Shown here one piece after another: positions 4,763 to 29,150 of a stretch of 32,000 nt of DNA. Numbering within the stretch: the first letter of the stretch is position 1; every line of letters starts with the position of its first letter. Below the pieces are notes generated by a model, which saw only the letters and a program-made list of their open reading frames with translations, searched no databases and was not told the DNA's origin. Source of the DNA: Alphaproteobacteria bacterium (GTDB taxonomy: Bacteria > Pseudomonadota > Alphaproteobacteria > Rs-D84); assembly GCA_031549365.1 (NCBI GenBank), contig JAVBPX010000007.1, positions 42,303 through 74,302 of the forward strand, read 5' to 3'. The position numbers and the translations under genes are program-made.

Positions 4763-4815
4763 GTATGGTCGAATAACTTATTTAGCTTAAAGATTCATCC
4801 ACCAATCTTATCAAC

Positions 4816-4846: not shown

Positions 4847-5108
4847 GGACATGTATAAACAACCGCCAAAACATAGCCAATTTAAGCCTGGACAATCGGG
4901 GAATCCACGTGGCCGACCACGACGTTTGAACAAAGACTTTATGGACTTGACTTCTCGCTTCTTTGAAGCAGTAATGAACGCAAAGGCCGGGAAACCGAAT
5001 GCCATCATCAAAATAAATCAGATACGAAGGATATTGCATGAAACCAAAAATATACCTGCCAAAAACTCTGGACGAACTACAAAAACTAAGCCACGAGAAA
5101 AAATCTGA
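4845..5108 (+). CDS. DUF5681-like fragment (second, shorter copy)
   Basis: PPKHSQFKPGQSGNPRGRP parallels the motif in ORF 1835..2221. At 87 aa, its 3' part is overlapped by the DUF2924 ORF in another frame. It may be a remnant. Confidence 0.35.
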   Translation: MDMYKQPPKHSQFKPGQSGNPRGRPRRLNKDFMDLTSRFFEAVMNAKAGKPNAIIKINQIRRILHETKNIPAKNSGRTTKTKPREKI

Positions 5109-6689: not shown

Positions 6690-6777
6690 AATATTATCCC
6701 TTGTTTTGTTGTTTTATCATATCGAAAGTTTGGTATTTATTCCCTTAAGCGCGAAACTTCCGTATGACAGACAACGC

Positions 6778-6864
6778 CTAAGGGCAGATATAGTAATAGT
6801 TACCTACATACATCGGCGAAGATGCAACAAAACAAGGTTTAAAAAAGGTTTCATGTGATGACAT
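6778..6864 (-). CDS. candidate leader peptide in the tyrS 5' leader (MSSHETFFKPCFVASSPMYVGNYYYICP)
   Basis: 28-codon ORF with an AAGGA SD 6 nt upstream of the ATG. It contains 4 Tyr codons, including TAT-TAC-TAT in a row. It lies between the predicted tyrS promoter and tyrS. It is too short for the ORF track. Confidence 0.3.
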   Translation of the reverse strand: MSSHETFFKPCFVASSPMYVGNYYYICP

Positions 6865-6887
6865 GATAATTCCTTGGTTTCCGCATC

Positions 6888-6916
6888 AATATATTCCAGA
6901 TTTCCCCAAAAGTCAA
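6888..6916 (-). promoter_or_regulatory. sigma70-like promoter for tyrS
   Basis: On the minus strand, TTGACT (6916-6911), a 17-nt spacer, then TATATT (6893-6888). This predicts a ~190-nt leader. Confidence 0.55.
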
Positions 6917-6925
6917 GTATTCCAT

Positions 6926-6956
6926 TTGACTTCCCACACAACGTAAGCATTCATTG
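6926..6956 (+). promoter_or_regulatory. promoter-like element upstream of the serine recombinase
   Basis: TTGACTTCCCA-N6-GTAAGC-N-TT, a paralog of 4816-4846. Its -35 lies back to back with the tyrS -35 (AGTCAA-N9-TTGACT, 6911-6931). Confidence 0.45.
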
Positions 6957-6976
6957 TGGTAACCAAGGGGGTAAAT

Positions 6977-9992: not shown

Positions 9993-10016
9993 AGCCCTGC
10001 CAGAAATAGCAGGACT
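9993..10016 (-). terminator. rho-independent terminator-like hairpin downstream of tRNA-Ser
   Basis: AGCCCTGC/GCAGGACT stem with 1 mismatch, followed on the minus strand by a run of 9 T. Confidence 0.45.
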
Positions 10017-10100
10017 AAAATTAAAAAAAGACGGATAAAATCCGCCTAAACATGTCCCATATTATATCATAAATCGTCAAAAAAATCAATCATAAATTTC

Positions 10101-10159
10101 TTCGAAATATCTACTCAATAATAAAACAGTGCACTGCCGAAATAGGGCATTGTATGTAA
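10101..10159 (+). repeat. 59-bp direct repeat, copy 2
   Basis: Matches 8534-8592 at 57 of 59 positions (AAATAGGG versus AAAATGGG). A partial echo, CGAAATATCTA...CCGGCAG...TTACATAC, follows at 10163-10201. Confidence 0.9.
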
Positions 10160-10305
10160 AGATCGAAATATCTAGGTGTTCCGGCAGATAAAATTACATA
10201 CCATTGCAATAACCTTAAAAACGCATCAAAAAAATCCCCGGATTCCGGGGATAATTCAAGGGTTATCGACTTTGTTAAAAATTGCAGTAAAATCAACAAC
10301 TTATC

Positions 10306-10395
10306 TGGCGGAGAGAGGGGGATTCGAACCCCCGATACCGTTGCCAGTATACACGCTTTCCAAGCGGGCGCGATCAACCACTCTGCCACCTCTCC
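10306..10395 (-). tRNA. tRNA-Ser (anticodon GGA)
   Basis: Folded by hand: acceptor GGAGAGG/TCTCTCC, anticodon loop TTGGAAA, long variable arm (ATAC..GTAT), T-arm GGGGG-TTCGAAT-CCCCC, discriminator G, and an encoded CCA. Confidence 0.9.
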
Positions 10396-10463
10396 GGATT
10401 TCTGGGATTACTATAACCACAAAACTCTAAACTTTCAAGCATAAAATCCATCCATTAAAAAAC

Positions 10464-10497
10464 AAAAAGCCCCAGGACAAATCCAAGGGGCTTTTTT
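10464..10497. terminator. bidirectional rho-independent terminator
   Basis: AAAAAGCCCC-aggacaaatccaa-GGGGCTTTTTT, downstream of the OMP gene on the minus strand. Confidence 0.7.
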
Positions 10498-10518
10498 ACA
10501 AGACCCGTTTCTAAAAGC

Positions 10519-11244
10519 TTAGAAATCAATTCCCATTTTAACACCAAATGACAATTGGTCTACGTCCAAATCCATCATTTCCGGAGCATACCCAACATAA
10601 CCAAACATTGTCATATTTTGGTTAAACATATATGTTGCGCCAGCACGAAAGTCCATAACTGCTGCATCGTCAGACACATCATCTTCCCCGAACATGTTGT
10701 ATTCAATTTCACCCTTTACGCCAACTTTATCAGATGTTTTAATCATCAATTCGCCCAAGATTTTGTAATCCCAGCGCCCGCCATTAACATCAACATAACG
10801 TGCGGCACCAGTTAATCCCCATGACAAATCTGTTCCACCATAGATTTTCGCTCCAAAGGTTCCTTCTTGTTCTTCGCTATCTTGGAATCCGATTCCCCAC
10901 ATACCAAATACATTCAATCCGAACTCTTCGGTATTAACTAAACGGTAATCCAATCCGACTGTTGGCGTTGCTTCTGAACCACCAAAACGGAAATAATCAG
11001 ATGTTGAAAAAGTTACTGACAAATCGTTTGTAATACCATATGCGCCATAAACATCCGTCATCCAATCATCCGCTTGACGTCCGTTGATATCGCCCAAGAA
11101 TTCTTCATTTTGAACAACATATTTTGTATCAACAACAACGTTGAAATGATTTTCAGCTGGACGGTATGTTGGCATCATTGTATTCGCAGCCATTGCAGAT
11201 GTCGCCATCAAAGCAAAAACTGAAGTTAACAATATTTTTTTCAT
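10519..11244 (-). CDS. outer membrane beta-barrel protein
   Basis: Signal peptide MKKILLTSVFALMATSAMA, alternating beta-strand-like pattern, and a C-terminal ..GVKMGIDF ending in Phe. Start set at ATG 11244 with a GGAGAAAGGA SD. Confidence 0.7.
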   Translation of the reverse strand: MKKILLTSVFALMATSAMAANTMMPTYRPAENHFNVVVDTKYVVQNEEFLGDINGRQADDWMTDVYGAYGITNDLSVTFSTSDYFRFGGSEATPTVGLDYRLVNTEEFGLNVFGMWGIGFQDSEEQEGTFGAKIYGGTDLSWGLTGAARYVDVNGGRWDYKILGELMIKTSDKVGVKGEIEYNMFGEDDVSDDAAVMDFRAGATYMFNQNMTMFGYVGYAPEMMDLDVDQLSFGVKMGIDF

Positions 11245-11398
11245 TCCTTTCTCCTTGTTTTTTATTACATAGCTATTGCTACATAACGAATCGTTGCACA
11301 CATCAACAACAAAAGTCAACGGGTAAAAAATCCCATTGCTTTATGGTAAAATTAGATTATAATTTCATTCCACAAAAAGAATTATGAGGGAAATAAAA

Positions 11399-12292
11399 AT
11401 GTCATTTAAATCAGCATTGGAACCCGTTGTGCGCGACGTAAATTCTGCACTTGATAACTATCTAATAATTCCGAACAAACCATTTGATTTAATATATCAC
11501 GCAACTCGATACAGCGTCCTTGACGCAGGAAAAAGATTACGCGCATTTATGACTGTTGAATCTGGGAAATTATTTAACGTTTCATACGATTCCTGTATAC
11601 GTGCTGGCGCCACAATTGAAATGGTCCACGCATTTTCTTTAATACACGATGACTTGCCCGCATTGGATAACGATGACATACGCCGAGGCAAACCATCATC
11701 ACATAAAAAGTGGGGCGAATCGACTGCAATCCTCGCTGGCGACGCTTTGTTGAATCAGGCTTTCTATATTTTATCCTCTGACGAAAAAATATCGCCAAAC
11801 CCGGCAACCCGCCTGGAACTTGTTCGTGTACTTTCCGAATGCACAGGCATGATGGGAATGATATCCGGCGAATTAATGGATTTAATGGCCGAAGATGGCA
11901 AATCGTTCCAAACCATTGCCGATGTCGACATGATTCAATTTTATAAAACCGGACAAATCTTTACATCCACTTTGCTGTTTGGCGCGACACTTGGCAACGC
12001 AACGGATCAGCAAAAAAACGCATTAAAAACTTATGCTCGTACATTCGGTCTGGCGTTTCAAATTACCGATGATATTTTGGATGTCGAAGGCGACCCAGAA
12101 CTAGTTGGCAAAACTTTGCACAAAGACGCAAAATCCGGCAAAGCCACATACATATCAATCATGGGCTTGGAACCTGCCCGCAATACTGCAAAAAAATTAA
12201 TTGACGACGCAATAAACGCTCTATCAATTTTTGATGAACGTGCGGATAATTTACGTGAATTGGCAAAATATACTCTAACTCGGAAATCATAA
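11399..12292 (+). CDS. ispA: polyprenyl (farnesyl/geranylgeranyl) diphosphate synthase
   Basis: First Asp-rich motif DDLPALDNDDIRRG and second motif DDILD. Start at ATG 11399 with a GAGGGA SD; an alternative ATG lies at 11384. Confidence 0.85.
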   Translation: MSFKSALEPVVRDVNSALDNYLIIPNKPFDLIYHATRYSVLDAGKRLRAFMTVESGKLFNVSYDSCIRAGATIEMVHAFSLIHDDLPALDNDDIRRGKPSSHKKWGESTAILAGDALLNQAFYILSSDEKISPNPATRLELVRVLSECTGMMGMISGELMDLMAEDGKSFQTIADVDMIQFYKTGQIFTSTLLFGATLGNATDQQKNALKTYARTFGLAFQITDDILDVEGDPELVGKTLHKDAKSGKATYISIMGLEPARNTAKKLIDDAINALSIFDERADNLRELAKYTLTRKS

Positions 12293-14343: not shown

Positions 14344-14470
14344 AAATCGTTTCAAAATGCGATGATTGGGTGAATTGCCGAAGTTTTTTGACGCGACGGA
14401 GCATATATAGACATATGTGACCCGCGCAAAAAACTAGCAATGCGCCCAAGGGCGCATTTTCAAACGATTT
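14344..14470 (+). repeat. nested palindromic element, copy C (127 bp)
   Basis: Terminal inverted repeats AAATCGTTTCAAAATGCG and CGCATTTTCAAACGATTT. Apex CATAT-ATAGAC-ATATG. The right end contains the last 3 codons and the stop of virB11. Confidence 0.8.
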
Positions 14471-15419
14471 CTGTAACGGCGCGCAACGCCCCATCCCTGG
14501 CCAACTGCACCACATGAATCTTTTTCTTCATTTCGGCCATTAATTCGGATCTGTTTAAACTCGGCTTGGTATGCAAAATTCTGTCTGCAAATGCGGCATA
14601 TGCTGCCTCGGCTGATTCTGCATGAATGGTTGTATAAAAATGATCATGACCTGTGCCCATCATTTCCCACAAAATCCCGGCATTATCTGTCGAAATTTCA
14701 CCACCGATGATCACATCTGGGGTCATACGCACAACCAAATCCAATAATTTTGCATAATTAAAATTATTGTTTTGTTCGGTACGTGATAAAATAAAATGAA
14801 CCCGGTTTTCTTGCGGCACTTTAACCTCACGCGCATCTTCAACTGTAATAACGCGCAAATTTCTGTCCAACAAAGTCAACAAATGATTTAAAAACGTGGT
14901 TTTACCGGTGGACGTAGCCCCAGAAATCAAAATCGGCGACCCATCGTTAATGGCCGCCATCAAACGTTCATACGGATCATCTGGTCGAACCTTGCCGCGC
15001 TTTTTAATTGACTTCAAAGCCTCGCCTTTTTTCAAATGATAATTTTCAAAAGATGTATCTTTCGCCATAGTCCCACGAATATTTAACGCAACACCACCCG
15101 TAACATCATTATCGTCATACATAACATTTGGTCCCGCAATCCCAGTAAATCTGTGATTCCCGGGTAACGTAGCATAAACAACCGGATTCCCATGAATCGG
15201 ATCAAACGGACGTTCGTAAATATTTGCAACTGTATGAATTAAATCGACCAAATATTGCTTTGATAACTTGTCGGACATATGACGCACCCACGGAACTTTT
15301 GTTCCATGCAAACGCATCCAAACCTCGCCCGCCCGATTAATTGCGATTTCCTCGACAAATTCAGGCTCAAAAAACTCGGCCAACGGTTTTATCAAAGTAT
15401 CTAAAACAATATCCGCCAT
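14460..15419 (-). CDS. virB11: type IV secretion ATPase VirB11
   Basis: Walker A GATSTGKTT, ..VITVEDAREV.., ..MTPDVIIGGEI.., and ..GTGHDHFYTTIHAES.. typical of VirB11/TrbB. Start set at ATG 15419 (MADIVLD). Confidence 0.85.
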   Translation of the reverse strand: MADIVLDTLIKPLAEFFEPEFVEEIAINRAGEVWMRLHGTKVPWVRHMSDKLSKQYLVDLIHTVANIYERPFDPIHGNPVVYATLPGNHRFTGIAGPNVMYDDNDVTGGVALNIRGTMAKDTSFENYHLKKGEALKSIKKRGKVRPDDPYERLMAAINDGSPILISGATSTGKTTFLNHLLTLLDRNLRVITVEDAREVKVPQENRVHFILSRTEQNNNFNYAKLLDLVVRMTPDVIIGGEISTDNAGILWEMMGTGHDHFYTTIHAESAEAAYAAFADRILHTKPSLNRSELMAEMKKKIHVVQLARDGALRAVTEIV

Positions 15420-15650
15420 AAAAATCCTCTCTCTGGCATATTTTACCACACCCTAATAAAAAACACAAAAGATAAAAATACCCAAAGGCACGCCACAACT
15501 CCATAATCGCGTCAGAATCTAACAGTCATAATTAATTCAGACAACATTCACACTGTATAAAAACATTCAAAATGTGTCGAATGAGCGTGTTTACGAAGTT
15601 TTTTCAGCGGGAGGAGCGTATACAGACAGACATACCCCTAAAAAACGAGA

Positions 15651-15682: not shown

Positions 15683-17272
15683 TTACTCTTTGCGATCTGG
15701 ATACTCACCCCTATCCAACTTCTCACGAATCTCGTGATGCTTCACTTTTTTCGTGCTGGTCTGTGGTAATTCATCCGTTGTCATCGCGTAATGTGTAACC
15801 CATTTGTACGGCGCAATTTTAACATTTGACGAAGCAATATCAATCGCCAATTTTTGCATTGTTACCTCTGGTTTAACTTGGAATACTCCGTATGCAACCA
15901 TTTTGCCACGAATAACTCGTTCCAAAACAGCAGCCGATAAAATATCAGGATTCTGCAAATACAAATCTTCCAATTCATCTGGATAAACGTTTTTACCGCT
16001 GTCCAAAACGATGACTTGTTTTTTACGTCCTTTTACAACCAAACGGCCTTTTTTATCAAACATCCCCAAATCACCGGTTTTATACCAACCGTCTTCTGTG
16101 AATGAATCTGCATTTGCTTCCGGGTTATTAATGTACCCAGGCATAACAACACGCCCACGAACATAAATTTCTCCAATTCCTTGCTTATTCGGTTCATTAA
16201 TCTTGACTTCGTTTCCAATTAATGGTCCGGCATAAACACGTTTTCCATCAGCATTAACGAATTCCAAATTAAAATTACTTGGCCCAGTTGTTTCTGTCAA
16301 TCCATAACAATCGCCGACTGTCATACCCAATGCTTCGTAAAATTTACGAATAGTTGGTTTTAACGTGGCCCCAGCTGAAATTAAAACAGAAACACGTCCA
16401 CCAAACATTTCATGAACTGGCTTGGTAATTCCTTTAACAATGAATCCTAAACCAATGGCACGCAAAAATCCGCGCATAGCCATAACAGTTTTGAACAACC
16501 AATACACGCGTTTTTCTCTGTAACCATCAATAATTTTTTTGTAAAACACTTCCCACATGCGTGGCACAGCCGGAATAACTTGCGGACGATATTTTTTGAA
16601 ATCAGCCAAAAATTCTTTTGGATTCATGCCCGGCTGTAATAACAATGAACCATCCAGCGCGATTGGAGCAATAATATTAATCACAAATCCATAAATATGG
16701 TACAGAGGCAAAAACCCATAAAATATAAACCCAGTCTTAATAACAGATCTATAATATTGTGCCCCATCATAAATACCCAAAATATTGTCATGCGTTAAGC
16801 CAACAATCTTTGGATTCCCAGTCGATCCCGAAGTAAATGATAATGACGCCAAATCATCCAATTCTACATCGGCGGCAACAAAATCTTTTTCATCGCCTGT
16901 ATCTTTGGAATTAATGTCATACATTTCCGGTCCGCCTTCAACGAACAAGTTTTTCTCGGCCAGAGCAATTGAACAATTCGTACGTGCCATCATGTTCAAA
17001 TGTTCTGTTTTGGCCAATGATGTGTCCAACATTAAAACTCTGGCTCCTTGTGAAACCACGGCAAAATATGAAACCAAAAATTGTGGAGAATTTGAACATA
17101 ACAAAGCAACAGTATCGCCTTTTTTAATCCCCAATTTTTTTGACAAAGTAACCGCACGCAATTTAACCAAGCGCAACAAGTCAGCATATGTCAAATTTTC
17201 CCTTACAAAAAACAAACGCTCTTTATTCTTCTCGCATGTTTCTTGTAACATTTGATATATATTTTTAAACAT
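15683..17272 (-). CDS. AMP-dependent acyl-CoA synthetase/ligase (long-chain fatty-acid-CoA ligase-like), paralog 1
   Basis: AMP-binding motif SFTSGSTGNPK, plus ..GYGLTET-like CYGLTETTG and ..TGDLG..GRKKQVIVLDSGKNVYPDELE. AAGGAG SD before the ATG at 17272. Confidence 0.85.
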   Translation of the reverse strand: MFKNIYQMLQETCEKNKERLFFVRENLTYADLLRLVKLRAVTLSKKLGIKKGDTVALLCSNSPQFLVSYFAVVSQGARVLMLDTSLAKTEHLNMMARTNCSIALAEKNLFVEGGPEMYDINSKDTGDEKDFVAADVELDDLASLSFTSGSTGNPKIVGLTHDNILGIYDGAQYYRSVIKTGFIFYGFLPLYHIYGFVINIIAPIALDGSLLLQPGMNPKEFLADFKKYRPQVIPAVPRMWEVFYKKIIDGYREKRVYWLFKTVMAMRGFLRAIGLGFIVKGITKPVHEMFGGRVSVLISAGATLKPTIRKFYEALGMTVGDCYGLTETTGPSNFNLEFVNADGKRVYAGPLIGNEVKINEPNKQGIGEIYVRGRVVMPGYINNPEANADSFTEDGWYKTGDLGMFDKKGRLVVKGRKKQVIVLDSGKNVYPDELEDLYLQNPDILSAAVLERVIRGKMVAYGVFQVKPEVTMQKLAIDIASSNVKIAPYKWVTHYAMTTDELPQTSTKKVKHHEIREKLDRGEYPDRKE

Positions 17273-17448: not shown

Positions 17449-17575
17449 AAATCGTGTCAGAATTATGTAGTTACAAAGAATTTATTGTTTTTTATGGCCC
17501 GCGGTTTACATAAACGTAAATAAGGGTCATAAAAACAATAAACTTGTTGGTAAATGCGTGATTATCACACGATTT
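17449..17575 (+). repeat. nested palindromic element, copy E (127 bp)
   Basis: Ends AAATCGTGTCAGAATTATG / GCGTGATTATCACACGATTT. Middle stem TTTATTGTTTTTTATGGCCC / GGGTCATAAAAACAATAAA. Apex TTTAC-ATAAAC-GTAAA. The right end overlaps the stop of ligase paralog 2. Confidence 0.75.
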
Positions 17576-19163
17576 ACTCTTTACGTTGGGAATACTCACC
17601 TTTTTCCAACATCTTCCTAACTTCATGATGCTTTACCTTTTTTGTACTTGTCTGTGGTAATTCATCATTCGTCATCGCATAATGTGTAACCCATTTATAT
17701 GACGCGACACGCATATTTTGCTTGGCAATACCCTTACCCAATTGCTCCAATGTAACATCAGGCTTAACTTGAAATACGCCATATGACACAGTCTTATTCT
17801 TGACCTTATGTTCAAACACAGCAACATTTTCAACCCCAGGTATTTCCATATATAATGCTTCCAATTCGTCTGGATATACATTTTTACCGCTATCTAAAAC
17901 AATAACTTGTTTTTTACGTCCACGGAAAAATAAATCTCCCTTTTCATCCATGACAGCCAAATCCCCGGTATTAAACCAACCATCTTTGTCAAACACTTCT
18001 GAATTGGCCAATTCGTTGTCCAAATATCCTTTGAATACAGAATGCCCACGAACCCACAATTCGCCAACGCCTTCGTTGTTTTTGTTACGAATTTGACATT
18101 CATTGTTTGACAACGATCCGCCAATTGAAAACGGCTTTCTATGCTTTGTTGGCTTACTGATACAGATTGGTCCCACGGTTTCGGTCAAACCATAGCCCTG
18201 AATAAATCCAAATCCCAACCGGGTATAGAATAATTCGATTTCAGGTTTCGTAGCGGCCCCACCAGCAATTAATAAACGAACACGTCCGCCGAACAAATCA
18301 TGAACCGGCCCAGTTAATTTGCGAACAACAAAACCCAACCCCATTGCTTTTAAAAATTTTTGTGATTTTAAAATAAACTTCAATACGCCGTACATATGCT
18401 TTGCTTTGTAGTTTTCAACAATCTTGTTATAAAATACTTCCCACAATCTTGGCACCGCAGGAATAACATGTGGCCTATATTGTTTAAAATCGGCCATAAT
18501 ATCTTTTGGGTTCATCCCTGGCTGTAACAAAATATTTGCACGATAATGTAACGTCGCCAAAATTTCTACAGCAAATCCATACACATGATACATTGGCAAA
18601 AATCCATATAAACAAGCACCATGATGAATGTATTCGGACATATCTTCCAACGAATTGGCCGTTTCAACCAAATTGAAATGTGTCAAAGGCACAACCTTTG
18701 GCATCCCAGTAGATCCAGAAGTAAATGATAACGAAGCAATTTCACAAGACGCAGCTTCATATGGTTTAAATACAAACCCTTTTTCCAACGCTGGATCTTT
18801 TTCTGTAATATCGTGAAATTTAAAATTCTTGCTTTCAAAGAAAAAACTTTTCTCGGCCAAAATCAATTTACAATTAACAATCTTGGTCATATTTTCATAT
18901 TCATATGGTGTTAAATTGGTATCCAACATCAAGACACGACCCCCGGCCGCCAAAATCGCAAAATACGACAATGGGAATTCTGGAATATTATGCGCCAAAA
19001 TACCAACAGTATCACCTGGCTGAACTTTATATTTTTTTTGTAAATTTACGGCTCTGGCATTAACCAATTCCAAAAATTCACCATACGTAGTTCCCTCACG
19101 GGTTAAAAACACATTGCTTGGGACTTCCCTAACAACCTGTTCCAAAAATTGATACATATTCAT
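17574..19163 (-). CDS. AMP-dependent acyl-CoA synthetase/ligase, paralog 2
   Basis: SFTSGSTGMPK. Long blocks are identical to paralog 1 (GRKKQVIVLDSGKNVYPDELE; YKWVTHYAMT.DELPQTSTKKVKHHE). Start set at ATG 19163 with AAGGA upstream. Confidence 0.85.
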   Translation of the reverse strand: MNMYQFLEQVVREVPSNVFLTREGTTYGEFLELVNARAVNLQKKYKVQPGDTVGILAHNIPEFPLSYFAILAAGGRVLMLDTNLTPYEYENMTKIVNCKLILAEKSFFFESKNFKFHDITEKDPALEKGFVFKPYEAASCEIASLSFTSGSTGMPKVVPLTHFNLVETANSLEDMSEYIHHGACLYGFLPMYHVYGFAVEILATLHYRANILLQPGMNPKDIMADFKQYRPHVIPAVPRLWEVFYNKIVENYKAKHMYGVLKFILKSQKFLKAMGLGFVVRKLTGPVHDLFGGRVRLLIAGGAATKPEIELFYTRLGFGFIQGYGLTETVGPICISKPTKHRKPFSIGGSLSNNECQIRNKNNEGVGELWVRGHSVFKGYLDNELANSEVFDKDGWFNTGDLAVMDEKGDLFFRGRKKQVIVLDSGKNVYPDELEALYMEIPGVENVAVFEHKVKNKTVSYGVFQVKPDVTLEQLGKGIAKQNMRVASYKWVTHYAMTNDELPQTSTKKVKHHEVRKMLEKGEYSQRKE

Positions 19164-19187
19164 TTTTTTTCCTTTTTTATGTTCCAC

Positions 19188-19957: not shown

Positions 19958-22108
19958 TTAATTTTTATTGGTATATCCCATTGACGCTCTGTGCTTCTCT
20001 ACTAAAAACTCTGGCACAGCAGGGCTCGGCGGAATCGCGGATTTTTCTATTAATTTTGCATCTTCATATGAACGAACATGATCTGCCTTAATCGGACGAT
20101 TTGCATACCCCTGCAATATTACCAACTGATTTTTTGTACTCATCGTAACAATATCCATTGGGGAAAACAAAACAGATTCTTTTTTCTCGTCTTTTCCATC
20201 TTTTGTTTCAATCTTAATTTTTGTACCCATCATTTCGGAAAATATTTTTGCAGTCTCTAAATTATTCTGGCGCAATACAATCTTCGCCGCGGTGGTTGAC
20301 ATTAAAATTTCCATATTTTCTTTTGAATACTTGGCGGCAATCTGTTGCAAATCTTGCCCAATTAATAAATAAGAAACCTTCTGCCCACGACCCAAATCCG
20401 GCCCTTCGATAACAGCTTGTAATTTCGCCATCTTTGGAAATTCGTCCAACACAAATAACACAGGGCAAGGTCCTAACTTTTTACCCGCATGTTCAAATTC
20501 TGGCGGATTCGCAATTAAAAATCTGGACATCAAAGTAACAAAAATCCCAGTAATTGGATTCAAAGCATCTGCATCAACCTGATTAATGGACAAATAAACA
20601 GTAACAGGTTTCATTTTTCCATCACGCGGATCAATCATTCCACGCAAATCTTCGAAATGGAAATCGGAATGCGAAGTCCTCGCACGCACGGCCGAATTTT
20701 TGAAAATCGCCATTGATGCGGCAACGGTGGACAAAATGGATCCACGTTCACGATCTGGCGTATTTGCCAACTGTGTTAATTCTTGAATCGAGCGATGCGC
20801 ATAACCAAATTGACGCCCTTCGTTCACAGCATCTTGGAACAAATCTTTCATCGGATCTGCCAACGCCACCATTTGATCTCCTTGGCGGCGACGATTTTCC
20901 AATTCTTCTGTAATATTAATCTGACTGGTTGTAATCCAATCCAATAACATAGACAACGAAGCTTCCTTACCAACCCACTGCGGCGGAATCCCTTTCCAGG
21001 TCCCAACCGGCACATAATTCATAATATTCATCTGACCGTTGTTTAATAAATTCCAAGCCCCTTCGGCATTTAAATCATTCATTTTCATATAATAACTTGA
21101 TAATAAAACCTTGTCCTCGGCATCAAAAGTATTTGTTTTAAACCGATGATAAAAATAATCATTTGCGCGCGCACGTTCACACTTGGAAACAATGAATTGA
21201 ATCAAACCTGATAAAGCTGCACGCCCTGATAATGTCCAATGTGGATCGGCGGACGACGCAGCCTTGTCTTCAACCAATACAGCCACCATACTGTCCACAT
21301 ACAAATCGCGCTCGGCCGGATCTTGCGGCACATGCGATGGCGACAAAGGATTCCAACTCGGATAATAAATCCCGGCATCTGGATTATCCTGGCCCGCCCA
21401 ATTGATAATAAACACGGGCCCAACTGTTGAACGATACCCGGACGTCAAATGCGCCAATTCCGGCTTTGGATCATTAACAATCATGGACACAGTATCACAC
21501 TCAAAAATTGTTGGCATAACAACACCCTTGGTTTTACCTGTCCCCGGGGGTGCCACGCATAATACAGATAACGTTTCATCCAACTTTAACCACTTTTTTT
21601 TGAATTGCCCCAACACAACCATAAACCCTTTGAATAAACCCATTTTTTCAACATCTTTTTCCGCCGCTTCCAAAGAACTCTTTTCATCAAACTTATCCTT
21701 ACCATATGGATTGAATTCTTTGACCACCTCGGAATCGCGTAACATATAAATAACAATCTGCCCAACCAATGGAACAATCATATAAATATCAGTGCGAAAA
21801 AAAGCACGCTCAAACCAAGCGGGAATTTCCGCAAATACAGACATTCCAAAACTGCTGACAATATGATTAAAATATAATCCCAACCAAGCCGTGGTGGCCG
21901 TCGAAAATCCGTAACGAAAAATATGTTCAACTGGAAATGATAATGCCAAAACAATGTATGCCAATATTGTTAACGCAAGGCTATACCGCATACGCCAAAA
22001 CATTTGGGCCATTGGGGCTTTTTCATGATCCTTGTACGCAGCAGACGAAAAGATCTTAAACCCTTTTCCCTTACCACCCACAGATAATAAATTTGGTAAT
22101 TTTGCCAT
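19958..22108 (-). CDS. virD4: type IV secretion coupling protein VirD4/TraG family
   Basis: N-terminal transmembrane segments, Walker A PPGTGKTKG, Walker B-like VLFVLDEFPKM, 716 aa. AGAGGAA SD. Confidence 0.85.
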   Translation of the reverse strand: MAKLPNLLSVGGKGKGFKIFSSAAYKDHEKAPMAQMFWRMRYSLALTILAYIVLALSFPVEHIFRYGFSTATTAWLGLYFNHIVSSFGMSVFAEIPAWFERAFFRTDIYMIVPLVGQIVIYMLRDSEVVKEFNPYGKDKFDEKSSLEAAEKDVEKMGLFKGFMVVLGQFKKKWLKLDETLSVLCVAPPGTGKTKGVVMPTIFECDTVSMIVNDPKPELAHLTSGYRSTVGPVFIINWAGQDNPDAGIYYPSWNPLSPSHVPQDPAERDLYVDSMVAVLVEDKAASSADPHWTLSGRAALSGLIQFIVSKCERARANDYFYHRFKTNTFDAEDKVLLSSYYMKMNDLNAEGAWNLLNNGQMNIMNYVPVGTWKGIPPQWVGKEASLSMLLDWITTSQINITEELENRRRQGDQMVALADPMKDLFQDAVNEGRQFGYAHRSIQELTQLANTPDRERGSILSTVAASMAIFKNSAVRARTSHSDFHFEDLRGMIDPRDGKMKPVTVYLSINQVDADALNPITGIFVTLMSRFLIANPPEFEHAGKKLGPCPVLFVLDEFPKMAKLQAVIEGPDLGRGQKVSYLLIGQDLQQIAAKYSKENMEILMSTTAAKIVLRQNNLETAKIFSEMMGTKIKIETKDGKDEKKESVLFSPMDIVTMSTKNQLVILQGYANRPIKADHVRSYEDAKLIEKSAIPPSPAVPEFLVEKHRASMGYTNKN

Positions 22109-22279: not shown

Positions 22280-22573
22280 ATGCGATCTGACTTCAAACTT
22301 TTTTGGATTGGCTGGGGAATGTTGGCAATCTCTGCCTTAACAGTCATGTTATTACAGGTCGGCTCTCAACAACAATTGGACGAATTAACAAAACTAAAAC
22401 GCGACATTGTAAAATCCCAGCAATACAAAACGGAATTGGAAGCAACCTTTGCATCCCTAACCCGCCCCGAAGTATTACGTTCCGTGGTATCATCCGTATA
22501 TCCAAATTTTGAACCAATATCATTTACAAAAATTGTTGATGTTGAACAATTGCCTCTGCGGGGTCAAATTTAA
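22280..22573 (+). CDS. ftsL: cell division protein FtsL
   Basis: Small bitopic protein with one transmembrane segment followed by a coiled-coil-like segment. It lies immediately upstream of ftsI and overlaps it (TAATG). Confidence 0.65.
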   Translation: MRSDFKLFWIGWGMLAISALTVMLLQVGSQQQLDELTKLKRDIVKSQQYKTELEATFASLTRPEVLRSVVSSVYPNFEPISFTKIVDVEQLPLRGQI

Positions 22574-24225
22574 TGGTTAAACGTAAAAAATTCACTGTTG
22601 GGTCCGACGTAATCACCGACATATTGGGCGGCACAAAATCCCACAAATTACAGGTCGTCGAAAACCCATGGGTTTCACGGATCCAGGTTTTATTGCTCGC
22701 CTTTACAATTATATTCGTCGCATTCGCAATTAAATTATTGATACTCGGATCTGACACATCTTTTCATCGCACACGTGGTGGGGTTGGCAATGCAAACTGG
22801 GATTTTATGCGTGCAGCAATCGTTGATCGACATGGTGAATTATTGGCCGTAAATGTACCGGCAGGACATATCATTGTCCGTCCAAATTTGGTCCGCGATC
22901 GTGACGAAGTGGTCAAAACAATCCGCACCGTTTTTCCAAATGAATCTTACGATTCCTTATTGAAACAAATCACAACTGATTCCAAATATGTATACATAAA
23001 AAAATTCACCTCTGAAACAAACGCGAACAAGATCAAGTCCGCCCGAATCCCAGGCCTCGACGTTGAAATGACAGAAAAGCGCTTGTATCCAAAACGCAAT
23101 TTATTCGCGCATGTTGTTGGTTTTGTTGGATCCGACGGTCGCGGACTCGAAGGTGCTGAAAAATGGTTCGACTCTGATTTACGCGGAAAATCGGATCCAG
23201 TCGCAATTTCAATTGATTCCCGGGTCCAGGCAGTAATGCACCAAGAATTGATGAAATCCGTCCAAAAATTTCATGCAAATTATGCAATGGGCATGTTAAT
23301 TAAATCCGAAACAGGCGAAATGATTGCAATGGTATCCGTACCCGATTTTGATCCTGAAAATCCACTGAATTCTCCTGTCGAAAACCGTTTCTTTAAACCA
23401 TTACAAGGCGCCTATGAAATGGGATCCGTCTTTAAAATTTTCAATACCGCATTGGCAATCGAAACTGGCATTGGACTTCGCCGTGAATACGACGTATCTA
23501 AACCATATACAATCCGTGGAAAAACAATCCGCGACGTCCCATCATTCAAACCACCACGCCCTCATATTTCTGTTGCTGAAATTATGTTGCACTCATCAAA
23601 CGTTGGGTCCGCCCAAATCGCATCCGATCTTCCGGACAATGCACAACGCGAAATGATGAAACGCCTCGGATTTATGGACGCCCTCGAAACAGATTTTGTA
23701 ACAACCGCAAAACCAGTATTGCCTCGCCAATGGGGCCCTGTTGAACGCGCAACAATTTCATTCGGACACGGTATTGCGATAACACCAATGCATTTATTAA
23801 CCGCGGTTAACGCAATGGTAAACGGCGGAATTTATGTAACGCCAACATTGAAAAAACAGGAACAAAATGGCGTTGTTCACGGCCGCCGTGTTGTAACACC
23901 AGAAGTATCCTCTCAAATCCGTCAAATCATGTATTTGATTGCTGAAAAAACCACCGCAAAAAAGGCTCGCATCGCAGGCATCGACATCGGCGGAAAAACC
24001 GGTACCGCTGAAAAATTGGTAAACGGCAAATATGATTCCGGCCGTGTTTTCACAGTATTCGTTGGCGCTTTTCCAATCAACGCACCACAATATACTTTGA
24101 TAATAATGTTGGACGAGCCCAAGGGAATCTCGGAAACCTGGGGCTTTAAAACAGCCGCCTGGAACGCCGTCCCAACCGCAGGCGCGGTAATGGATACGGT
24201 CCTTCCTCTCCTCTTCAACGAATAA
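22573..24225 (+). CDS. ftsI: peptidoglycan D,D-transpeptidase FtsI (PBP3)
   Basis: Transpeptidase motifs SVFK (SxxK), SSN (SxN) and KTGT, plus an N-terminal membrane anchor. Confidence 0.9.
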   Translation: MVKRKKFTVGSDVITDILGGTKSHKLQVVENPWVSRIQVLLLAFTIIFVAFAIKLLILGSDTSFHRTRGGVGNANWDFMRAAIVDRHGELLAVNVPAGHIIVRPNLVRDRDEVVKTIRTVFPNESYDSLLKQITTDSKYVYIKKFTSETNANKIKSARIPGLDVEMTEKRLYPKRNLFAHVVGFVGSDGRGLEGAEKWFDSDLRGKSDPVAISIDSRVQAVMHQELMKSVQKFHANYAMGMLIKSETGEMIAMVSVPDFDPENPLNSPVENRFFKPLQGAYEMGSVFKIFNTALAIETGIGLRREYDVSKPYTIRGKTIRDVPSFKPPRPHISVAEIMLHSSNVGSAQIASDLPDNAQREMMKRLGFMDALETDFVTTAKPVLPRQWGPVERATISFGHGIAITPMHLLTAVNAMVNGGIYVTPTLKKQEQNGVVHGRRVVTPEVSSQIRQIMYLIAEKTTAKKARIAGIDIGGKTGTAEKLVNGKYDSGRVFTVFVGAFPINAPQYTLIIMLDEPKGISETWGFKTAAWNAVPTAGAVMDTVLPLLFNE

Positions 24226-24417: not shown

Positions 24418-25110
24418 ATGGAAAATCGTGGAATTTTGTTTTGGTCTACTATGACCCTCACTCTGATACTTGCAATATATGTATCCGTGCGGGTAATGAT
24501 GGTAACGGCGGGTTCTTCTCCCATCACACGCATATCGAACATAACGTTTTCTCCAGATCCAACAATCATTGATAAACGCCGCGTGGTTCAATTAATGAAT
24601 TTACAAAACAATGTATCTGTATATGAATTGGATATGGATATTATGGTTGAACACATTCAAACAATTCCTGAAATTGAATACGTTTCAATTGCCCGCCACC
24701 CTAATGGAAATCTAACAATCCGCATCCGCGAACGCGCCACAGTTGCTTTCTGGAAATCGGATAACAAATATTATCCCTTGGATGAAATGGGTCGATTAAT
24801 TGACCGCCCAATTTCTGAACGTCCTGAAAATTTACCTCTTTTTATTGGTGCCCAACCAACTGATGTTTCCAAGATAATTAAAACAATAAACAACCACGCA
24901 ATTTTAATGGATCGGGTTGCTTCCATCGAATTGGTCGAAGACCGCCGTTGGAACATTAACTTATCATCCGGCACAACAATTATGCTACCCGAAACAGACA
25001 TCGATACTGTATTAAAAAACCTTGCAAAATATCAACAACGCGCATTACTGTTGGATCGCGAAATTGAAAGAATTGATCTACGTGATAAAAACCGCATATT
25101 GGTACGATAA
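24418..25110 (+). CDS. ftsQ: cell division protein FtsQ
   Basis: N-terminal transmembrane segment, POTRA-like region, and ..RRWNINLSSGTTIMLPE.. typical of FtsQ. It directly abuts ftsA. Confidence 0.8.
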   Translation: MENRGILFWSTMTLTLILAIYVSVRVMMVTAGSSPITRISNITFSPDPTIIDKRRVVQLMNLQNNVSVYELDMDIMVEHIQTIPEIEYVSIARHPNGNLTIRIRERATVAFWKSDNKYYPLDEMGRLIDRPISERPENLPLFIGAQPTDVSKIIKTINNHAILMDRVASIELVEDRRWNINLSSGTTIMLPETDIDTVLKNLAKYQQRALLLDREIERIDLRDKNRILVR

Positions 25111-26982
25111 ATGATTAACCTGAACGAGGATTTTTTCTGCGTCTTGGATCTCGGGCATTCTGGCGTACGCGCCATAGGGGCCGAAGTTTTACACGGAAAA
25201 ATCCAACGTATCCGGGTTGAATGCTATGACTACGATTCAACGGACATGGAATCATTTTTACAAAACGCCTCAACTGGAATTGCCCACACTGTGGACCGAT
25301 TGGAAGATGCCTTTTCCTGCCGCTATCAACGCGTATGGGTATCCGGAAATTTTGGACCAATTAAATCCCGCGTATTTCCAGTCGAAATGAATTTTGAATC
25401 GGATAAAAAAGTCACTCCATCCGATGTAATAAAATTAATATCCAGTCGCGAAAATATCTTGAATAACGAAAACGAACACGTACTACATGTAATCCCAACA
25501 TATTACATCGTTGATAATTTCCGCGATTTAAATTCAATCGTTGGAATGCGGGGTTCCCGCATTGGCGCCATATTCCACAGCATATCTGCTGGCCGCGATC
25601 AAATCCGTGACATTGCATCATGTTTACGTCGTGTGCATTTGGAATCTGAACAATTTTTAGATGTGATGATGGTTGTCGGTTCAACTGAATTAACCGACGA
25701 ACAACGCGAAAATGGGACATTAATAATTGATTTGGGCGCGGGCGCAACACACCTCGGCATTTGGTTTAAAAATCGTTTGGTTTATTCCGAAAAAATACCA
25801 CTCGGTGGAAATAATTTAACCGAAACAATTTCTGACGCAATCGGCGTAAACAAATCAATTGCCGAACGCCTGAAACTGGAAATTGGAACAGCAATCCAAA
25901 ACGATATGGACGCATTTAAATCAATCACTTTTTCTGTCCCAGACGAAAGCGGAATCCCAACCGAACGAATTATCACACGATCCGAAATAACATCCGTAAT
26001 ATCTGATTGGTTGGTTGATTTGTTTGATACAATCGACAAACATTTGGTTGCTCGTAAAAAAGATGGTTATATAAATAACATCGTCCTAATGGGTGGCGGC
26101 GCAAAAATTGGCGATATTGAAACAATCGTCCAAAACATATTTGACAAACCAACAACAATTTTATCCGATTCGGACTTGGTATTAATTAATTCATTATATA
26201 AATTCGTTTGGGGTTCAATGAAAAACGAAATCACAGATTATGAAAATAATCGCCAACAATGGGATTACCGCTGGGTCCAAATTAAAAATTGGTTTGAAAA
26301 ACATTTAACCCCTAAAAACAAAATTCGATTGATAAAAAACCCTGTAATGCCCAGCACACTTGCCTTTGACATGACATCTGAAAAAACTTATCAAACATTT
26401 AGATCTGGAAAAATCGATACAATCCATGTTGACGTAATGGACGGAATGTATGTTGAAAATACAGCCTCTGGAATATCGGAAATCGCATCCATCCGAAAAA
26501 TGACTGATGCACACCTACACGTCCATTTAATGGTAAACAATCCAATGGATTGGATTGAATCCACAGCAAACGCCGGCGCAGATTCAATTTTAATTTCCAT
26601 GGACACTGACGGCGCAATCACATCCCTGAACAAAATAAAATCATTAAAATTACGATGTGGTGTTGCCCTGCATCCAAACAGTCCACTATCTCTATTATTG
26701 CCAATACTTCCGCTTGTGGACGAGGTTATGATAATGTCAGTAATCCCAGGATCTGGCGGCCAACCATTTATCCCAACCTCAATTAACCGCATAACGAAAC
26801 TACGCGCCTACCGTGAAAAACATAAATTAAGCTTTAAAATTTCCGTGGATGGGGGCATAAACGCGGATTCCGCCCCGCTTTGTTGGGCATCTGGGGCTGA
26901 TTTATTGGTTGCCGGCTCATTTCTGGCAAAATCAGAATCTTTTCCATCTGCGGTCCGCCAATTATTACCAAAAAAGGCTTGA
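25111..26982 (+). CDS. ftsA: FtsA fused in frame to ribulose-phosphate 3-epimerase
   Basis: Residues 1 to ~400 are actin-like FtsA (LIIDLGAGATHLGIW, IPLGGNNLTETI, VLMGGGAKIGDIE), ending in the amphipathic segment RWVQIKNWFEKHL. Residues ~407-623 are Rpe (HVDVMDG, HVHLMV, MSVIPGSGGQ, VDGGI, VAGS). No stop lies between the two parts. Confidence 0.75.
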   Translation: MINLNEDFFCVLDLGHSGVRAIGAEVLHGKIQRIRVECYDYDSTDMESFLQNASTGIAHTVDRLEDAFSCRYQRVWVSGNFGPIKSRVFPVEMNFESDKKVTPSDVIKLISSRENILNNENEHVLHVIPTYYIVDNFRDLNSIVGMRGSRIGAIFHSISAGRDQIRDIASCLRRVHLESEQFLDVMMVVGSTELTDEQRENGTLIIDLGAGATHLGIWFKNRLVYSEKIPLGGNNLTETISDAIGVNKSIAERLKLEIGTAIQNDMDAFKSITFSVPDESGIPTERIITRSEITSVISDWLVDLFDTIDKHLVARKKDGYINNIVLMGGGAKIGDIETIVQNIFDKPTTILSDSDLVLINSLYKFVWGSMKNEITDYENNRQQWDYRWVQIKNWFEKHLTPKNKIRLIKNPVMPSTLAFDMTSEKTYQTFRSGKIDTIHVDVMDGMYVENTASGISEIASIRKMTDAHLHVHLMVNNPMDWIESTANAGADSILISMDTDGAITSLNKIKSLKLRCGVALHPNSPLSLLLPILPLVDEVMIMSVIPGSGGQPFIPTSINRITKLRAYREKHKLSFKISVDGGINADSAPLCWASGADLLVAGSFLAKSESFPSAVRQLLPKKA

Positions 26983-27040: not shown

Positions 27041-27322
27041 ATGTCAAGATTGTGCCAAGTAACAGGCAAAAAAACCGAAGTCGGAATGAACGTTTCTCAC
27101 TCGAATCGTCGCACAAAACGTACATTCAAACCAAATTTGCAAACATTAAAATTTCACAGCGAAATTTTAAACCGTGATTTCACATTGAAAATTTCAACAC
27201 GTGGTTTGCGCACTATAACAAAACATGGTGGCTTGGATGAATACTTGATGTCCAAGGGAAATTCCAAATTAACCCCAGACATGTTGGTTATCAAAAAATT
27301 ATTGGTTAAAAAGGCCGCTTAA
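27041..27322 (+). CDS. rpmB: 50S ribosomal protein L28
   Basis: MSRLCQVTGKKTEVGMNVSHSNRRTKRTFKPNLQ is the canonical L28 N-terminus. AAGGA SD. Confidence 0.95.
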   Translation: MSRLCQVTGKKTEVGMNVSHSNRRTKRTFKPNLQTLKFHSEILNRDFTLKISTRGLRTITKHGGLDEYLMSKGNSKLTPDMLVIKKLLVKKAA

Positions 27323-27345
27323 TTCAAACCAAAATCATTAAAAAA

Positions 27346-27367
27346 ACTCCCAAACGGGAGTTTTTTT
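27346..27367 (+). terminator. rho-independent terminator of rpmB
   Basis: ACTCCC-aaac-GGGAGT followed by TTTTTTT. Confidence 0.8.
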
Positions 27368-27413
27368 AATTGCCATTGCAGCACAGCACGACGATAATTA
27401 CAATTAATAATAT

Positions 27414-27630: not shown

Positions 27631-28014
27631 ATGAAATACTTGTCGCTCATTTTCACAACATTACTATTATTCGGCTGCACCTCTATCCAAGAGGGTTCCA
27701 TCGACCAAGCTACCGTGCTACACTGGGAAAACGACCGTGTAACCTTGGACCAATTTACCCGCGATCACAAAGAATGCTTGGGCGTAACCAAACCTTCATA
27801 CACGCCACGCACGCGCCTTGAAAAATTCTTGATGCCAAACGCAGCAACCACCATGCCGAAATGGGATGGACTCTGGGTAACATTCCAATCAAACGAATAT
27901 TCCGAGGGTGGACAACGCATCGTCATGTCCGTCCCATCAAATCAAACTGCAAACTCTGTCGGGGCATACCGCAAATGTATGTTCGGACGCAATTATTTAC
28001 TCAGGTCTGAATAA
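27631..28014 (+). CDS. putative lipoprotein
   Basis: Signal peptide with lipobox LLFGC (MKYLSLIFTTLLLFGCTS). No family recognised. Confidence 0.6.
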   Translation: MKYLSLIFTTLLLFGCTSIQEGSIDQATVLHWENDRVTLDQFTRDHKECLGVTKPSYTPRTRLEKFLMPNAATTMPKWDGLWVTFQSNEYSEGGQRIVMSVPSNQTANSVGAYRKCMFGRNYLLRSE

Positions 28015-28016
28015 AA

Positions 28017-29150
28017 ATGAAAAAAACCATAACTGTTCTGCACTTACTACCGAACTTGAACGCCGGCGGCGTTGAACGTATGGTAATTGAATTGTCAAAA
28101 AATTTAAAGAAACAAAACGTAAATGTAATTGTCGCATCAAACGGTGGACGCGGTGTTGATTATTTACGCGCGGCCGAGGTTGAACACATAAAAATGCCGC
28201 TGCACAAAAAAAATCCACTTTCAATCTGGCGGAATATTTCACGTTTAAAAAAATTAATTAACGAACGCGAAATTGATATTGTACACGCGCATTCTCGGGC
28301 TCCTGCTTGGACTGGATATTACGCGGCAAAAAAAACAAATAAACAATTCGTAACAACATTCCATGGATTTCATAAAACAGGTTGGCTAAAAAAATATTAT
28401 AATCGTGTAATGTCATACGGCCGCCCAACAATCGCAGTATCCAAATTCATGCGCAAATACATAATCGAAAACTATCCAAACATCGACCAAAAAAATATAA
28501 CTGTTGTACACGATGGAATTGATTTGCGAATCTTTAATCCAAAAATGGTAACCGCGCGTCGCCAAATTGATGTATTGCGTGAATATAACATTTCACCTGA
28601 TAAAAAGCTGATAACTCTGGTTGGCCGCATCACCGGGTGGAAGGGTCAACACATCCTAATCTCTGCCTGCGCAAAATTAAAACGTGATGATTATGTTTGC
28701 GTACTTGCCGGCCCGGCCCAGGGTAACGGCACATATTTCCGGGAAATCAAAAAAATGATTAACGACAATTGCCTTAACGACAAAATCGCAATGATTGGAA
28801 ACGTAACTGACATCCCAACATTAATGCGCATTTCTCATGTTGCGTTAAACACATCTGTCCGGGCCGAAGCATTTGGCCTAACCACACTGGAAGCATCTGC
28901 ATTGGGAACCCCAATCATCGCAACAAAAATCGGCGGATCATTGGAAATTGTAATTGATGGCACAACTGGATTCTTGGTTGAACCAAATGATCCTGACGCA
29001 TTGGCAAATGCACTGAATAAAATTTTGGATATGTCGGTTTCGGAACACCACAAAATGGGGGATGCCGGCGTGGCCCAGGCATCAAATTTCTCATCCGAAA
29101 AAATGGCTCGCGGTTATTTATCAGCATACAAAAAAATCCTGTCGGAATGA
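28017..29150 (+). CDS. glycosyltransferase family 4
   Basis: C-terminal GT1/GT4 signature ..EAFGLTTLEASALGTPIIATKIGGSLEIVIDGTTGFLVEP.. on a GT-B two-domain layout. Confidence 0.8.
   Translation: MKKTITVLHLLPNLNAGGVERMVIELSKNLKKQNVNVIVASNGGRGVDYLRAAEVEHIKMPLHKKNPLSIWRNISRLKKLINEREIDIVHAHSRAPAWTGYYAAKKTNKQFVTTFHGFHKTGWLKKYYNRVMSYGRPTIAVSKFMRKYIIENYPNIDQKNITVVHDGIDLRIFNPKMVTARRQIDVLREYNISPDKKLITLVGRITGWKGQHILISACAKLKRDDYVCVLAGPAQGNGTYFREIKKMINDNCLNDKIAMIGNVTDIPTLMRISHVALNTSVRAEAFGLTTLEASALGTPIIATKIGGSLEIVIDGTTGFLVEPNDPDALANALNKILDMSVSEHHKMGDAGVAQASNFSSEKMARGYLSAYKKILSE

Follow-up and report, generated by a model that had tools for sequence, protein, structure and literature searches.

A 32,000-nucleotide stretch of the alphaproteobacterial contig JAVBPX010000007.1 (assembly GCA_031549365.1, Rs-D84 lineage; hereafter the window) contains one uninterrupted open reading frame (ORF) in which a complete FtsA is followed by a long helix, a short basic linker and an equally complete ribulose-phosphate 3-epimerase (Rpe) barrel. 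This ftsA::rpe gene probably yields one bifunctional polypeptide, tethered to the membrane through its internal helix and basic linker, which would act both in cell division and in the interconversion of ribulose 5-phosphate and xylulose 5-phosphate (Ru5P/Xu5P) and which would have arisen by an ancient loss of the ftsA stop codon. The FtsA::Rpe architecture is the new part, each half belonging to a well-known family, and we found no published description of such a fusion in 7.7 million open-access PMC papers or among 0.34 million bioRxiv preprints.

The frame (25111-26982, + strand) starts with ATG and runs for 623 codons to a TGA stop with no in-frame stop codon. An earlier reading of the same DNA (the first-pass annotation) had described it as an uninterrupted FtsA-Rpe frame, and the ORF listing and two sets of profile searches bear this out. 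Pfam matches SHS2_FTSA and then FtsA (residues 205-352, 5e-17) in the first half and Ribul_P_3_epim in the second (residues 412-604, taking in positions 2-196 of the 198 in the profile). The NCBIfam matches are to the ftsA model TIGR01174 at residues 10-350 and to the Rpe model NF004076 at residues 411-617 (2.3e-57); the remaining E-values are given in Table 1. GC content and third-position GC (GC3) are equal in the two halves, with no break in composition at the junction.

For a scan of other genomes we used one genome per GTDB species and kept the best 80 loci, to which all counts out of 80 refer. The first-pass annotation had suggested looking for the same fusion in related genomes, and all 80 species representatives carry it without interruption (a single high-scoring segment pair each, covering query residues ~2-621, with 588-617 codons between stops), as do further, divergent cluster representatives beyond the 80. 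Its carriers are Candidatus Enterousia / order Rs-D84 and allied uncultured alphaproteobacterial metagenome-assembled genomes (MAGs) from termite gut, rumen, chicken and human gut. When 5.8 billion proteins were searched through a word index, the identical protein came up together with 18 more of full length that have both Pfam domains (574-594 aa, 32-37% identical, 91-100% query coverage) and whose source MAGs are labelled Rickettsiales or Alphaproteobacteria. In an exhaustive hidden Markov model (HMM) search of 1.84 billion cluster representatives, about 30 fusion-family clusters (defined at 50% identity) scored at least 277 bits, the next match, a 160-aa fragment, scored 196 bits, and ordinary stand-alone Rpe proteins scored at most 190 bits. 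The window protein aligns with the family profile from end to end (802 bits, profile positions 1-590), and the identity of family clusters to it goes down to 20-28% in the FtsA half and 22-56% in the Rpe half. Where indels occur across the junction, their lengths are multiples of three, and its architecture is conserved.

The fusion is thus real and not an assembly error, since the same uninterrupted frame is present in all 80 species representatives. It is exceedingly improbable that ftsA and rpe are separate genes in this MAG and that sequencing or assembly concealed a stop or frameshift between them: such an error might seem to be favored by the finding of the identical protein in only one NCBI and one Logan contig (run SRR23967709), possibly from the same reads, but the 80 representatives were assembled independently, many other metagenomes carry the in-frame fusion at 20-56% identity, and the composition is unbroken. 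The stop codon or indel in sister strains that the first-pass annotation named as a possible refutation did not turn up. Shorter entries in the exhaustive HMM list look like fragments, and we traced one of them. This protein, P0143, is an apparent stand-alone Rpe of the family with 209 aa, and we rejected it as evidence for separate genes. It comes from a locus (L087, XIEF21-1 scaffold_84937) with a gap of Ns at ~2590-2980 whose flanks are duplicated (TEQSEKYIN on both sides); because of the gap, the fusion is called as two proteins, an 'FtsA' of 306 aa and an 'Rpe' of 209 aa, and the frame continues through the gap. This sole split example is therefore a scaffolding and gene-calling artefact, and it illustrates how the fusion may be hidden from view by errors of this kind.

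The fusion predates the divergence of a clade of host-associated, reduced-genome Alphaproteobacteria that comprises Rs-D84 / Candidatus Enterousia and deeper relatives, the window lineage included. The first-pass annotation had called it unusual, which holds among bacteria at large but not within this clade, where the fusion is the rule, and it may be of use as a marker, in the manner of a synapomorphy, for Rs-D84 / Enterousia and allied lineages. Rs-D84 genomes are smaller than 1 Mb, and, transaldolase apart, the steps of the non-oxidative pentose-phosphate pathway are encoded in most of them (PMC12306168); FtsA and FtsZ go unmentioned in that genome paper. Five fusion proteins (P0004, P0007-P0009 and P0011) are named only 'ribulose-phosphate 3-epimerase' by NCBI and JGI, which leaves the FtsA half invisible; with such product names, automated surveys would score the clade as lacking FtsA. 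Five fusion-bearing MAGs (L002, L004, L006, L035 and L077), several of them among the closest relatives of the window with up to 39% identity, are labelled 'uncultured Muribaculaceae bacterium' (Bacteroidota). Where checked (L002 and L004), they show the Rs-D84-type synteny of orf126, ftsQ and fusion, and the labels are probably those of mislabelled submissions.

The structure of the junction, whose prediction the first-pass annotation had recommended, was modelled with AlphaFold2 on a 19-sequence alignment (mean pLDDT 87.5). The model has a confident FtsA domain, a helix at residues 371-398, a disordered stretch at 399-408 and a barrel that is confident from residue 411. Near the end of the helix lies the W/K-rich segment that had been likened to the membrane-targeting helix of FtsA (RWVQIKNWFEKHL, residues 387-399, nt 26269-26307). 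The likeness is now strengthened, as residues 388-399 (WVQIKNWFEKHL) are in register with the extreme C-terminal tails of stand-alone FtsAs, which have the form ...WFKxNF-COOH: ...KIVAWFKDNI-COOH in P0020, ...LSRWFKENFER-COOH in P0021 and ...TIGAWIKANF-COOH in P0024. Pichoff and Lutkenhaus reportedly placed the membrane-targeting amphipathic helix of FtsA at that C-terminal position in 2005. In the fusion the helix is present but internal, with 224 residues after it. On the other side of the junction, ordinary Rpe starts M-x(1-6)-I-x-P-S-I-L and the fusion reads ...KHL-TPKNKIRLIKN-PVMPSTL, so that about 10 residues separate the former FtsA C-terminus from Rpe strand beta-1.

Because the helix is in register with FtsA C-terminal tails and the barrel begins where ordinary Rpe starts, the join is essentially end-to-start, at the old FtsA C-terminus. 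A loss of the stop codon would be the simplest origin, since the join coincides exactly with the end of stand-alone FtsAs and the beginning of stand-alone Rpe proteins: in a single event during genome compaction, the ftsA stop would have been lost at an abutting or overlapping ftsA-rpe boundary. The nearest stand-alone FtsAs (P0020 and P0021) show no ftsA-rpe adjacency of the kind expected for the pre-fusion state. The arrangement of a helix followed by a basic tail is conserved across the family: in 92 of 110 sequences the best amphipathic 14-mer precedes the Rpe barrel by 23-26 residues, and the net charge of the 14 residues before the barrel is +5 in the window and +6 on average over 81 sequences. 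The hydrophobic moment of the helix (Fauchere-Pliska scale) is 0.51-0.57 in the window, compared with 0.61 for the E. coli FtsA tail, a family mean of 0.65 and 0.48 for shuffled sequences.

Both halves of the protein are kept under purifying selection, as the level of conservation shows: mean pairwise identity among the 80 species is 51% for FtsA, 32% for the linker and 70% for Rpe, and the window protein is 27% (FtsA) and 51% (Rpe) identical to them. In Foldseek searches against the PDB, the N-terminal half finds FtsA structures at target TM scores of 0.76-0.83, ahead of PilM at 0.63, and it shares the four-subdomain fold, including the 1C (SHS2) insert, with the FtsAs of Vibrio maritimus (7q6f), E. 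coli (7q6d) and Thermotoga maritima (4a2a). In FtsA generally, subdomain 2B is the binding site of the FtsZ C-terminal peptide, and 1C brings in late division proteins. The nucleotide-binding motifs are D13/G15 (phosphate-1), D207-L-G-A-G-A-T213 (phosphate-2) and G328-G-G to G330 (adenosine), and the DG / DGT / GGG signature that they represent is intact in most of 118 family sequences, the window included. We considered whether DxGA in place of DxGGG in phosphate-2 marks a degenerate FtsA and rejected this, since stand-alone FtsAs carry the same variants (DLGAGAT or DLGAGTT, the former in P0031 being identical to that of the window). As with known FtsAs, the FtsA part ends in an amphipathic ...W-F-x-K-x-L helix and the gene directly follows ftsQ, whose TAA stop abuts the ATG of the fusion (...cgaTAAATGatt); ftsQ is directly upstream in 79 of the 80 related loci. 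The fusion differs from known FtsAs in that the membrane helix is internal and followed by the basic linker and a 210-residue enzyme domain, in two lineage-specific insertions (~residues 42-50 and 271-280), in a score below the TIGR01174 equivalog cut-off (see below) and in the absence of an adjacent ftsZ. That ftsZ does not follow had been remarked on in the first pass and stands: the next gene is rpmB, and tblastn with E. coli FtsZ found no match in the window or within 10 kb in about 90 related loci (FtsZ in the control locus L085, a dcw cluster, was detected at 8e-71). Nor is there an ftsZ near ftsI in the one Rs-D84 genome inspected for it (L092).

Alternatively, the N-terminal half could be a paralogue or a relic, and the cell would then have its true FtsA gene elsewhere or divide without FtsA. 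The score under the TIGR01174 cut-off and the lack of an adjacent ftsZ in any locus would fit such a scenario, as would a divergent subfamily (P0137, at 10001-11716 of locus L090, P0142 and P0146) that has Tyr for the phosphate-1 Asp and Asn or His for the phosphate-2 Asp, which suggests that its FtsA half does not bind nucleotide. We nevertheless regard it as very unlikely, as in both sequence and fold FtsA is matched better than PilM and MreB, with the 1C subdomain peculiar to FtsA among the matching parts; the gene consistently sits just after ftsQ; the C-terminal membrane helix is kept in register; and a redundant relic of 370 residues would hardly be preserved, with 51% mean identity, in genomes of less than 1 Mb. 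In the P0137/P0142/P0146 subfamily the Rpe active site is intact. A rough neighbor-joining tree puts the window protein nearest to this subfamily, and both have type IV secretion genes and the pair of a 127-aa ORF and a glycosyltransferase gene (described below) nearby.

The Rpe half aligns with residues 6-214 of the 220 in the Streptococcus pyogenes enzyme 2fli in a PDB sequence search, and Foldseek superimposes its model on 2fli with a target TM score of 0.92 and an rmsd of 1.4 A at 37% identity. All the Rpe motifs that the first-pass annotation had listed are found: H439-V-D441-V-M-D444, H472-L-M-V, P546-G-S-G-G-Q551, V579-D-G-G and A601-G-S603. Among these are the metal and catalytic residues H439, D441, D444, H472 and D580, which are invariant in an alignment of the family, and the phosphate loops (P546 to Q551, G581-G582 and G602-S603). 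Together with Rpe proteins such as 2fli and the potato chloroplast enzyme 1rpx (PF00834), the fusion thus has the full-length barrel, the His/Asp metal ligands, the catalytic Asp, the cushioning Met and the phosphate loops; in contrast to them, its barrel lacks an N-terminus of its own, strand beta-1 starting 11 residues after the FtsA helix. The Rpe half scores above the cut-offs of the NF004076 subfamily (193.8 vs 165 bits) and Pfam (159.6 vs 21.1) and below that of the AlsE model NF007266 (148 vs 271), which stands for epimerases of a related sugar phosphate, allulose-6-P; by its separation from ordinary Rpe proteins in the HMM search, the fusion family forms a distinct cluster. A change from 'FVPN' to 'YVEN' was considered as a mark of altered function and discarded, since ordinary Rpe proteins vary at that site (FVEN, FVKN, FVDN, FVAN and others). 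Public data hold other Rpe fusions, with thiamine pyrophosphokinase (P0023), PASTA (P0057) and AP_endonuc_2, a xylose-isomerase-like TIM barrel (P0030). Like FtsA::Rpe, they show that Rpe tolerates N-terminal partners in several unrelated architectures; unlike it, they have partners that are neither cytoskeletal nor part of the divisome, and they are unrelated to the FtsA fusion family.

The catalytic pentad (HDDHD, the five residues named above) is intact in 115 of 118 family sequences, and the phosphate loops are intact in nearly all. Two very AT-rich lineages depart from this. In P0135 (10001-11770 of loci L088/L089; GC 26% in L088), the pentad reads YTDHC and both the FtsA motifs and the phosphate loops are lost, and the 589-codon frame is kept; the protein has the same synteny as its relatives and is present in independent ENA and JGI assemblies. 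P0144, which is very AT-rich, keeps the FtsA motifs and the full-length fusion frame, and its Rpe appears to be dead (NDDNY, with the phosphate loops deleted). Such catalytically dead barrels in two AT-rich lineages hint at an additional structural role for the Rpe domain, for which they are the only evidence. The barrel might even serve FtsA chiefly as a structural or regulatory extension, for instance as a hub for oligomerisation or a pentose-phosphate sensor, rather than act as the metabolic epimerase of the cell; Rpe forms hexamers, and the 2fli entry contains 12 chains. We consider this distinctly unlikely, given that the pattern in the 115 sequences is the one expected of an active enzyme, that Rpe is the better conserved half and that P0135, being without FtsA nucleotide motifs as well, may simply be undergoing decay in a genome that is extremely AT-rich. 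More specifically, and in our view also unlikely although a little less so, the barrel could be an oligomerising, ligand-binding module that controls FtsA assembly at the membrane, so that division would be gated by the pentose-phosphate supply of a host or partner, with P0135/P0144 and P0137/P0142/P0146 as different end-states of such a scaffold.

If the fusion is translated as one product, translation from ATG 25111 would give a polypeptide of ~70 kDa. A free Rpe might be made besides or instead of it, either by initiation at TTG 26329 (codon 407) or ATG 26347 (codon 413) or by proteolysis in the basic linker, which is predicted to be disordered and exposed. The second of these codons is the methionine of a P-I-M-P-S motif in relatives, and in 67 of 81 sequences it is start-capable (ATG in 52, TTG in 15). 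In the other 14, however, it is TTA (12) or CTG (2), and in two species (L005 and L014) the 30 codons that precede the barrel include no in-frame ATG, GTG or TTG. For these reasons internal initiation is not a conserved feature, in line with the earlier view that separate initiation of rpe was not obviously supported, though it may occur as a minor event in the window. The earlier view was argued from the lack of Shine-Dalgarno (SD)-like sequences. There is indeed no such motif in the 25 nt before 26329, 26347 or 26371 in the window, where about half of the other genes have one, and this counts mildly against initiation there. Across relatives the argument is weak: no junction start has an SD motif in any of the 81 sequences, but neither does the start of the fusion itself, so that we set the SD analysis aside as uninformative for the clade, in which SD motifs seem to be scarce ahead of these genes and the lack of one does not exclude initiation. 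Promoter and terminator scans, in which site counts equalled chance expectation, found neither a promoter-like nor a terminator-like site at the junction. Moreover, if only free Rpe mattered, stop codons in the linker would not be selected against, yet none is found across very deep divergence. On balance we judge production of a free Rpe to be quite improbable, and a single FtsA-Rpe polypeptide remains the reading that we prefer.

In such a polypeptide, the FtsA half would still act in division beside FtsQ, FtsI and FtsL and would bind the membrane by the helix that has become internal, with the polybasic linker strengthening the attachment. Held at the inner face of the membrane, the Rpe half would interconvert Ru5P and Xu5P for the truncated non-oxidative pentose-phosphate pathway reported for Rs-D84. 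A tether at the N-terminus of the barrel should not block the active site, because the N-terminus of a TIM barrel is on the face opposite the catalytic one. The Rpe domain may also cluster FtsA protomers, since solved Rpe proteins are oligomers, and such a role would explain why the barrel is retained in two lineages after the loss of catalytic residues.

Several points weigh against this picture. The FtsA half scores 165.0 bits against a trusted cut-off of 175.85 for TIGR01174, as a diverged member would, and the Rpe half scores 169.2 bits against 212.6 for the equivalog TIGR01163. With a pTM of 0.60, the AlphaFold2 model contains nothing to indicate a fixed interface between the two domains. 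The moment of the window helix is below the family mean, and just 45% of the helices in the family have a moment above the 95th percentile of shuffles. No genome was found with adjacent separate ftsA and rpe genes, and a stop-loss origin is what we infer; the one-product state, membrane binding, epimerase activity and division function are likewise read from sequence and predicted structure.

Free metabolic enzymes that modulate division include UgtP in B. subtilis, OpgH in E. coli and GdhZ and KidO in Caulobacter, which bind FtsZ reversibly and inhibit it. The fusion resembles these systems in that an enzyme of central metabolism would be physically tied to the early divisome, a possible route for coupling nutrients to division; it differs in that they are free regulators of FtsZ, whereas in the fusion FtsA and the enzyme form one covalent chain. 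The fusion is robust, clade-wide and surprising for a core divisome protein, yet domain fusions are common in reduced genomes and any regulatory coupling is hypothetical. With a central-metabolism enzyme tied to the divisome across a whole clade of uncultured gut bacteria with genomes of less than 1 Mb, the hypothesis that division is coupled to metabolism could be tested with a single recombinant protein. FtsA also appears to tolerate, over long evolutionary time, a folded 24-kDa domain after its membrane helix, which would constrain models of how it is seated on the membrane and polymerises.

Table 1. Features of the fusion gene and of the rest of the window (window coordinates; residues are those of the fusion protein).
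Feature	Position	Strand	Evidence or remark
ftsA::rpe fusion ORF	25111..26982	+	623 codons + TGA; identical protein on record is P0001
FtsA core, actin-like ATPase, residues 1-368	25111..26214	+	TIGR01174 2.5e-48; PDB 7q6f 8e-29; Foldseek 7q6f target TM 0.83; pLDDT mostly >88
FtsA subdomain 1C (SHS2 insert), residues 84-158	25360..25584	+	Pfam SHS2_FTSA 2.1e-11
Long predicted helix after FtsA core, residues 371-398	26221..26304	+	AlphaFold2 DSSP; pLDDT in 10-residue blocks falls from 89 to 65
Amphipathic W/K-rich segment WVQIKNWFEKHL, residues 388-399 (putative former C-terminal membrane-targeting helix)	26272..26307	+	aligned in register with stand-alone FtsA tails
Basic flexible linker TPKNKIRLIKN, residues 400-410	26308..26340	+	pLDDT <50 for residues 399-408
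Complete Rpe (beta/alpha)8 barrel, residues 411-618	26341..26964	+	PF00834 8e-47; NF004076; PDB 2fli 1.2e-39; Foldseek 2fli
ftsL-like, first gene of compact division cluster	22280..22573	+	NCBIfam FtsL_COG5462 2.7e-08, below cut-off; no Pfam match; stop overlaps ftsI start
ftsI (PBP3-type transpeptidase)	22573..24225	+	Pfam Transpeptidase 3e-53, PBP_dimer 1e-13
ftsQ	24418..25110	+	Pfam FtsQ_DivIB_C 1e-16
rpmB (ribosomal protein L28)	27041..27322	+	Pfam Ribosomal_L28 5e-25; SD-like AAAGGA ahead
Bidirectional hairpin with T-runs, probable transcription-unit end	27337..27370	.	terminator-like, 15 pairs; such sites occur in chance number in the region, only suggestive
Lipoprotein-like ORF, 127 aa, LLLFGC lipobox-like motif	27631..28014	+	no Pfam or NCBIfam match
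Terminase large subunit	385-1881	-	prophage/integrative-like cluster
DUF5681	1835-2221	-	prophage/integrative-like cluster
ParB-N/N6-N4 DNA methylase	2218-3573	-	prophage/integrative-like cluster
Fic/HTH protein	3728-4762	+	prophage/integrative-like cluster
DUF2924	5038-5496	+	prophage/integrative-like cluster
Class I Trp/Tyr-type tRNA synthetase	5493-6689	-	surrounded by genes of the prophage/integrative-like cluster
Large serine recombinase	6956-8476	+	prophage/integrative-like cluster
tRNA-Ser(GGA)	10306-10395	-	

The window organism is a divergent relative of the Rs-D84-type fusion clade; its FtsI is 50-56% identical to that of Rs-D84-type MAGs. The division cluster of the window is fragmented, with ftsL, ftsI, ftsQ and ftsA in a row and no intervening mur, mraY, ftsW or ddl genes, and ftsZ is absent from it. 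In Rs-D84 relatives the unit consists of a 126-aa lipoprotein-like ORF, ftsQ, the fusion and then a convergent tsaE, and in one Rs-D84 genome (L092) the ftsL-like gene and ftsI lie elsewhere, adjoining recJ, lolA, M23 peptidase genes and tatABC, with a SPOR-domain gene nearby. By tblastn, 66 of the 80 loci have, upstream of ftsQ and on its strand, a homologue of the 127-aa ORF, which in the window is downstream of rpmB; the ORF is likewise upstream of ftsQ in L082 (8850-9230), L088 and L090. This lipoprotein-like ORF, which forms a pair with a GT4 glycosyltransferase gene in the window (28017-29150), in L090 (7960-9274) and in five other loci, may encode a partner in division or in the envelope that has gone unrecognised.

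Farther upstream, the - strand of the window carries type IV secretion genes, a VirB11-like ATPase (14460-15449) and a VirD4/TraG coupling protein (19958-22108), between which are two tandem AMP-binding genes resembling acyl/aryl-CoA ligases (15683-17272 and 17574-19187). VirB4 genes are found near the fusion in the divergent relative L090 and also near a stand-alone FtsA in L084. The genes at 385-8476 look like a prophage or integrative element.

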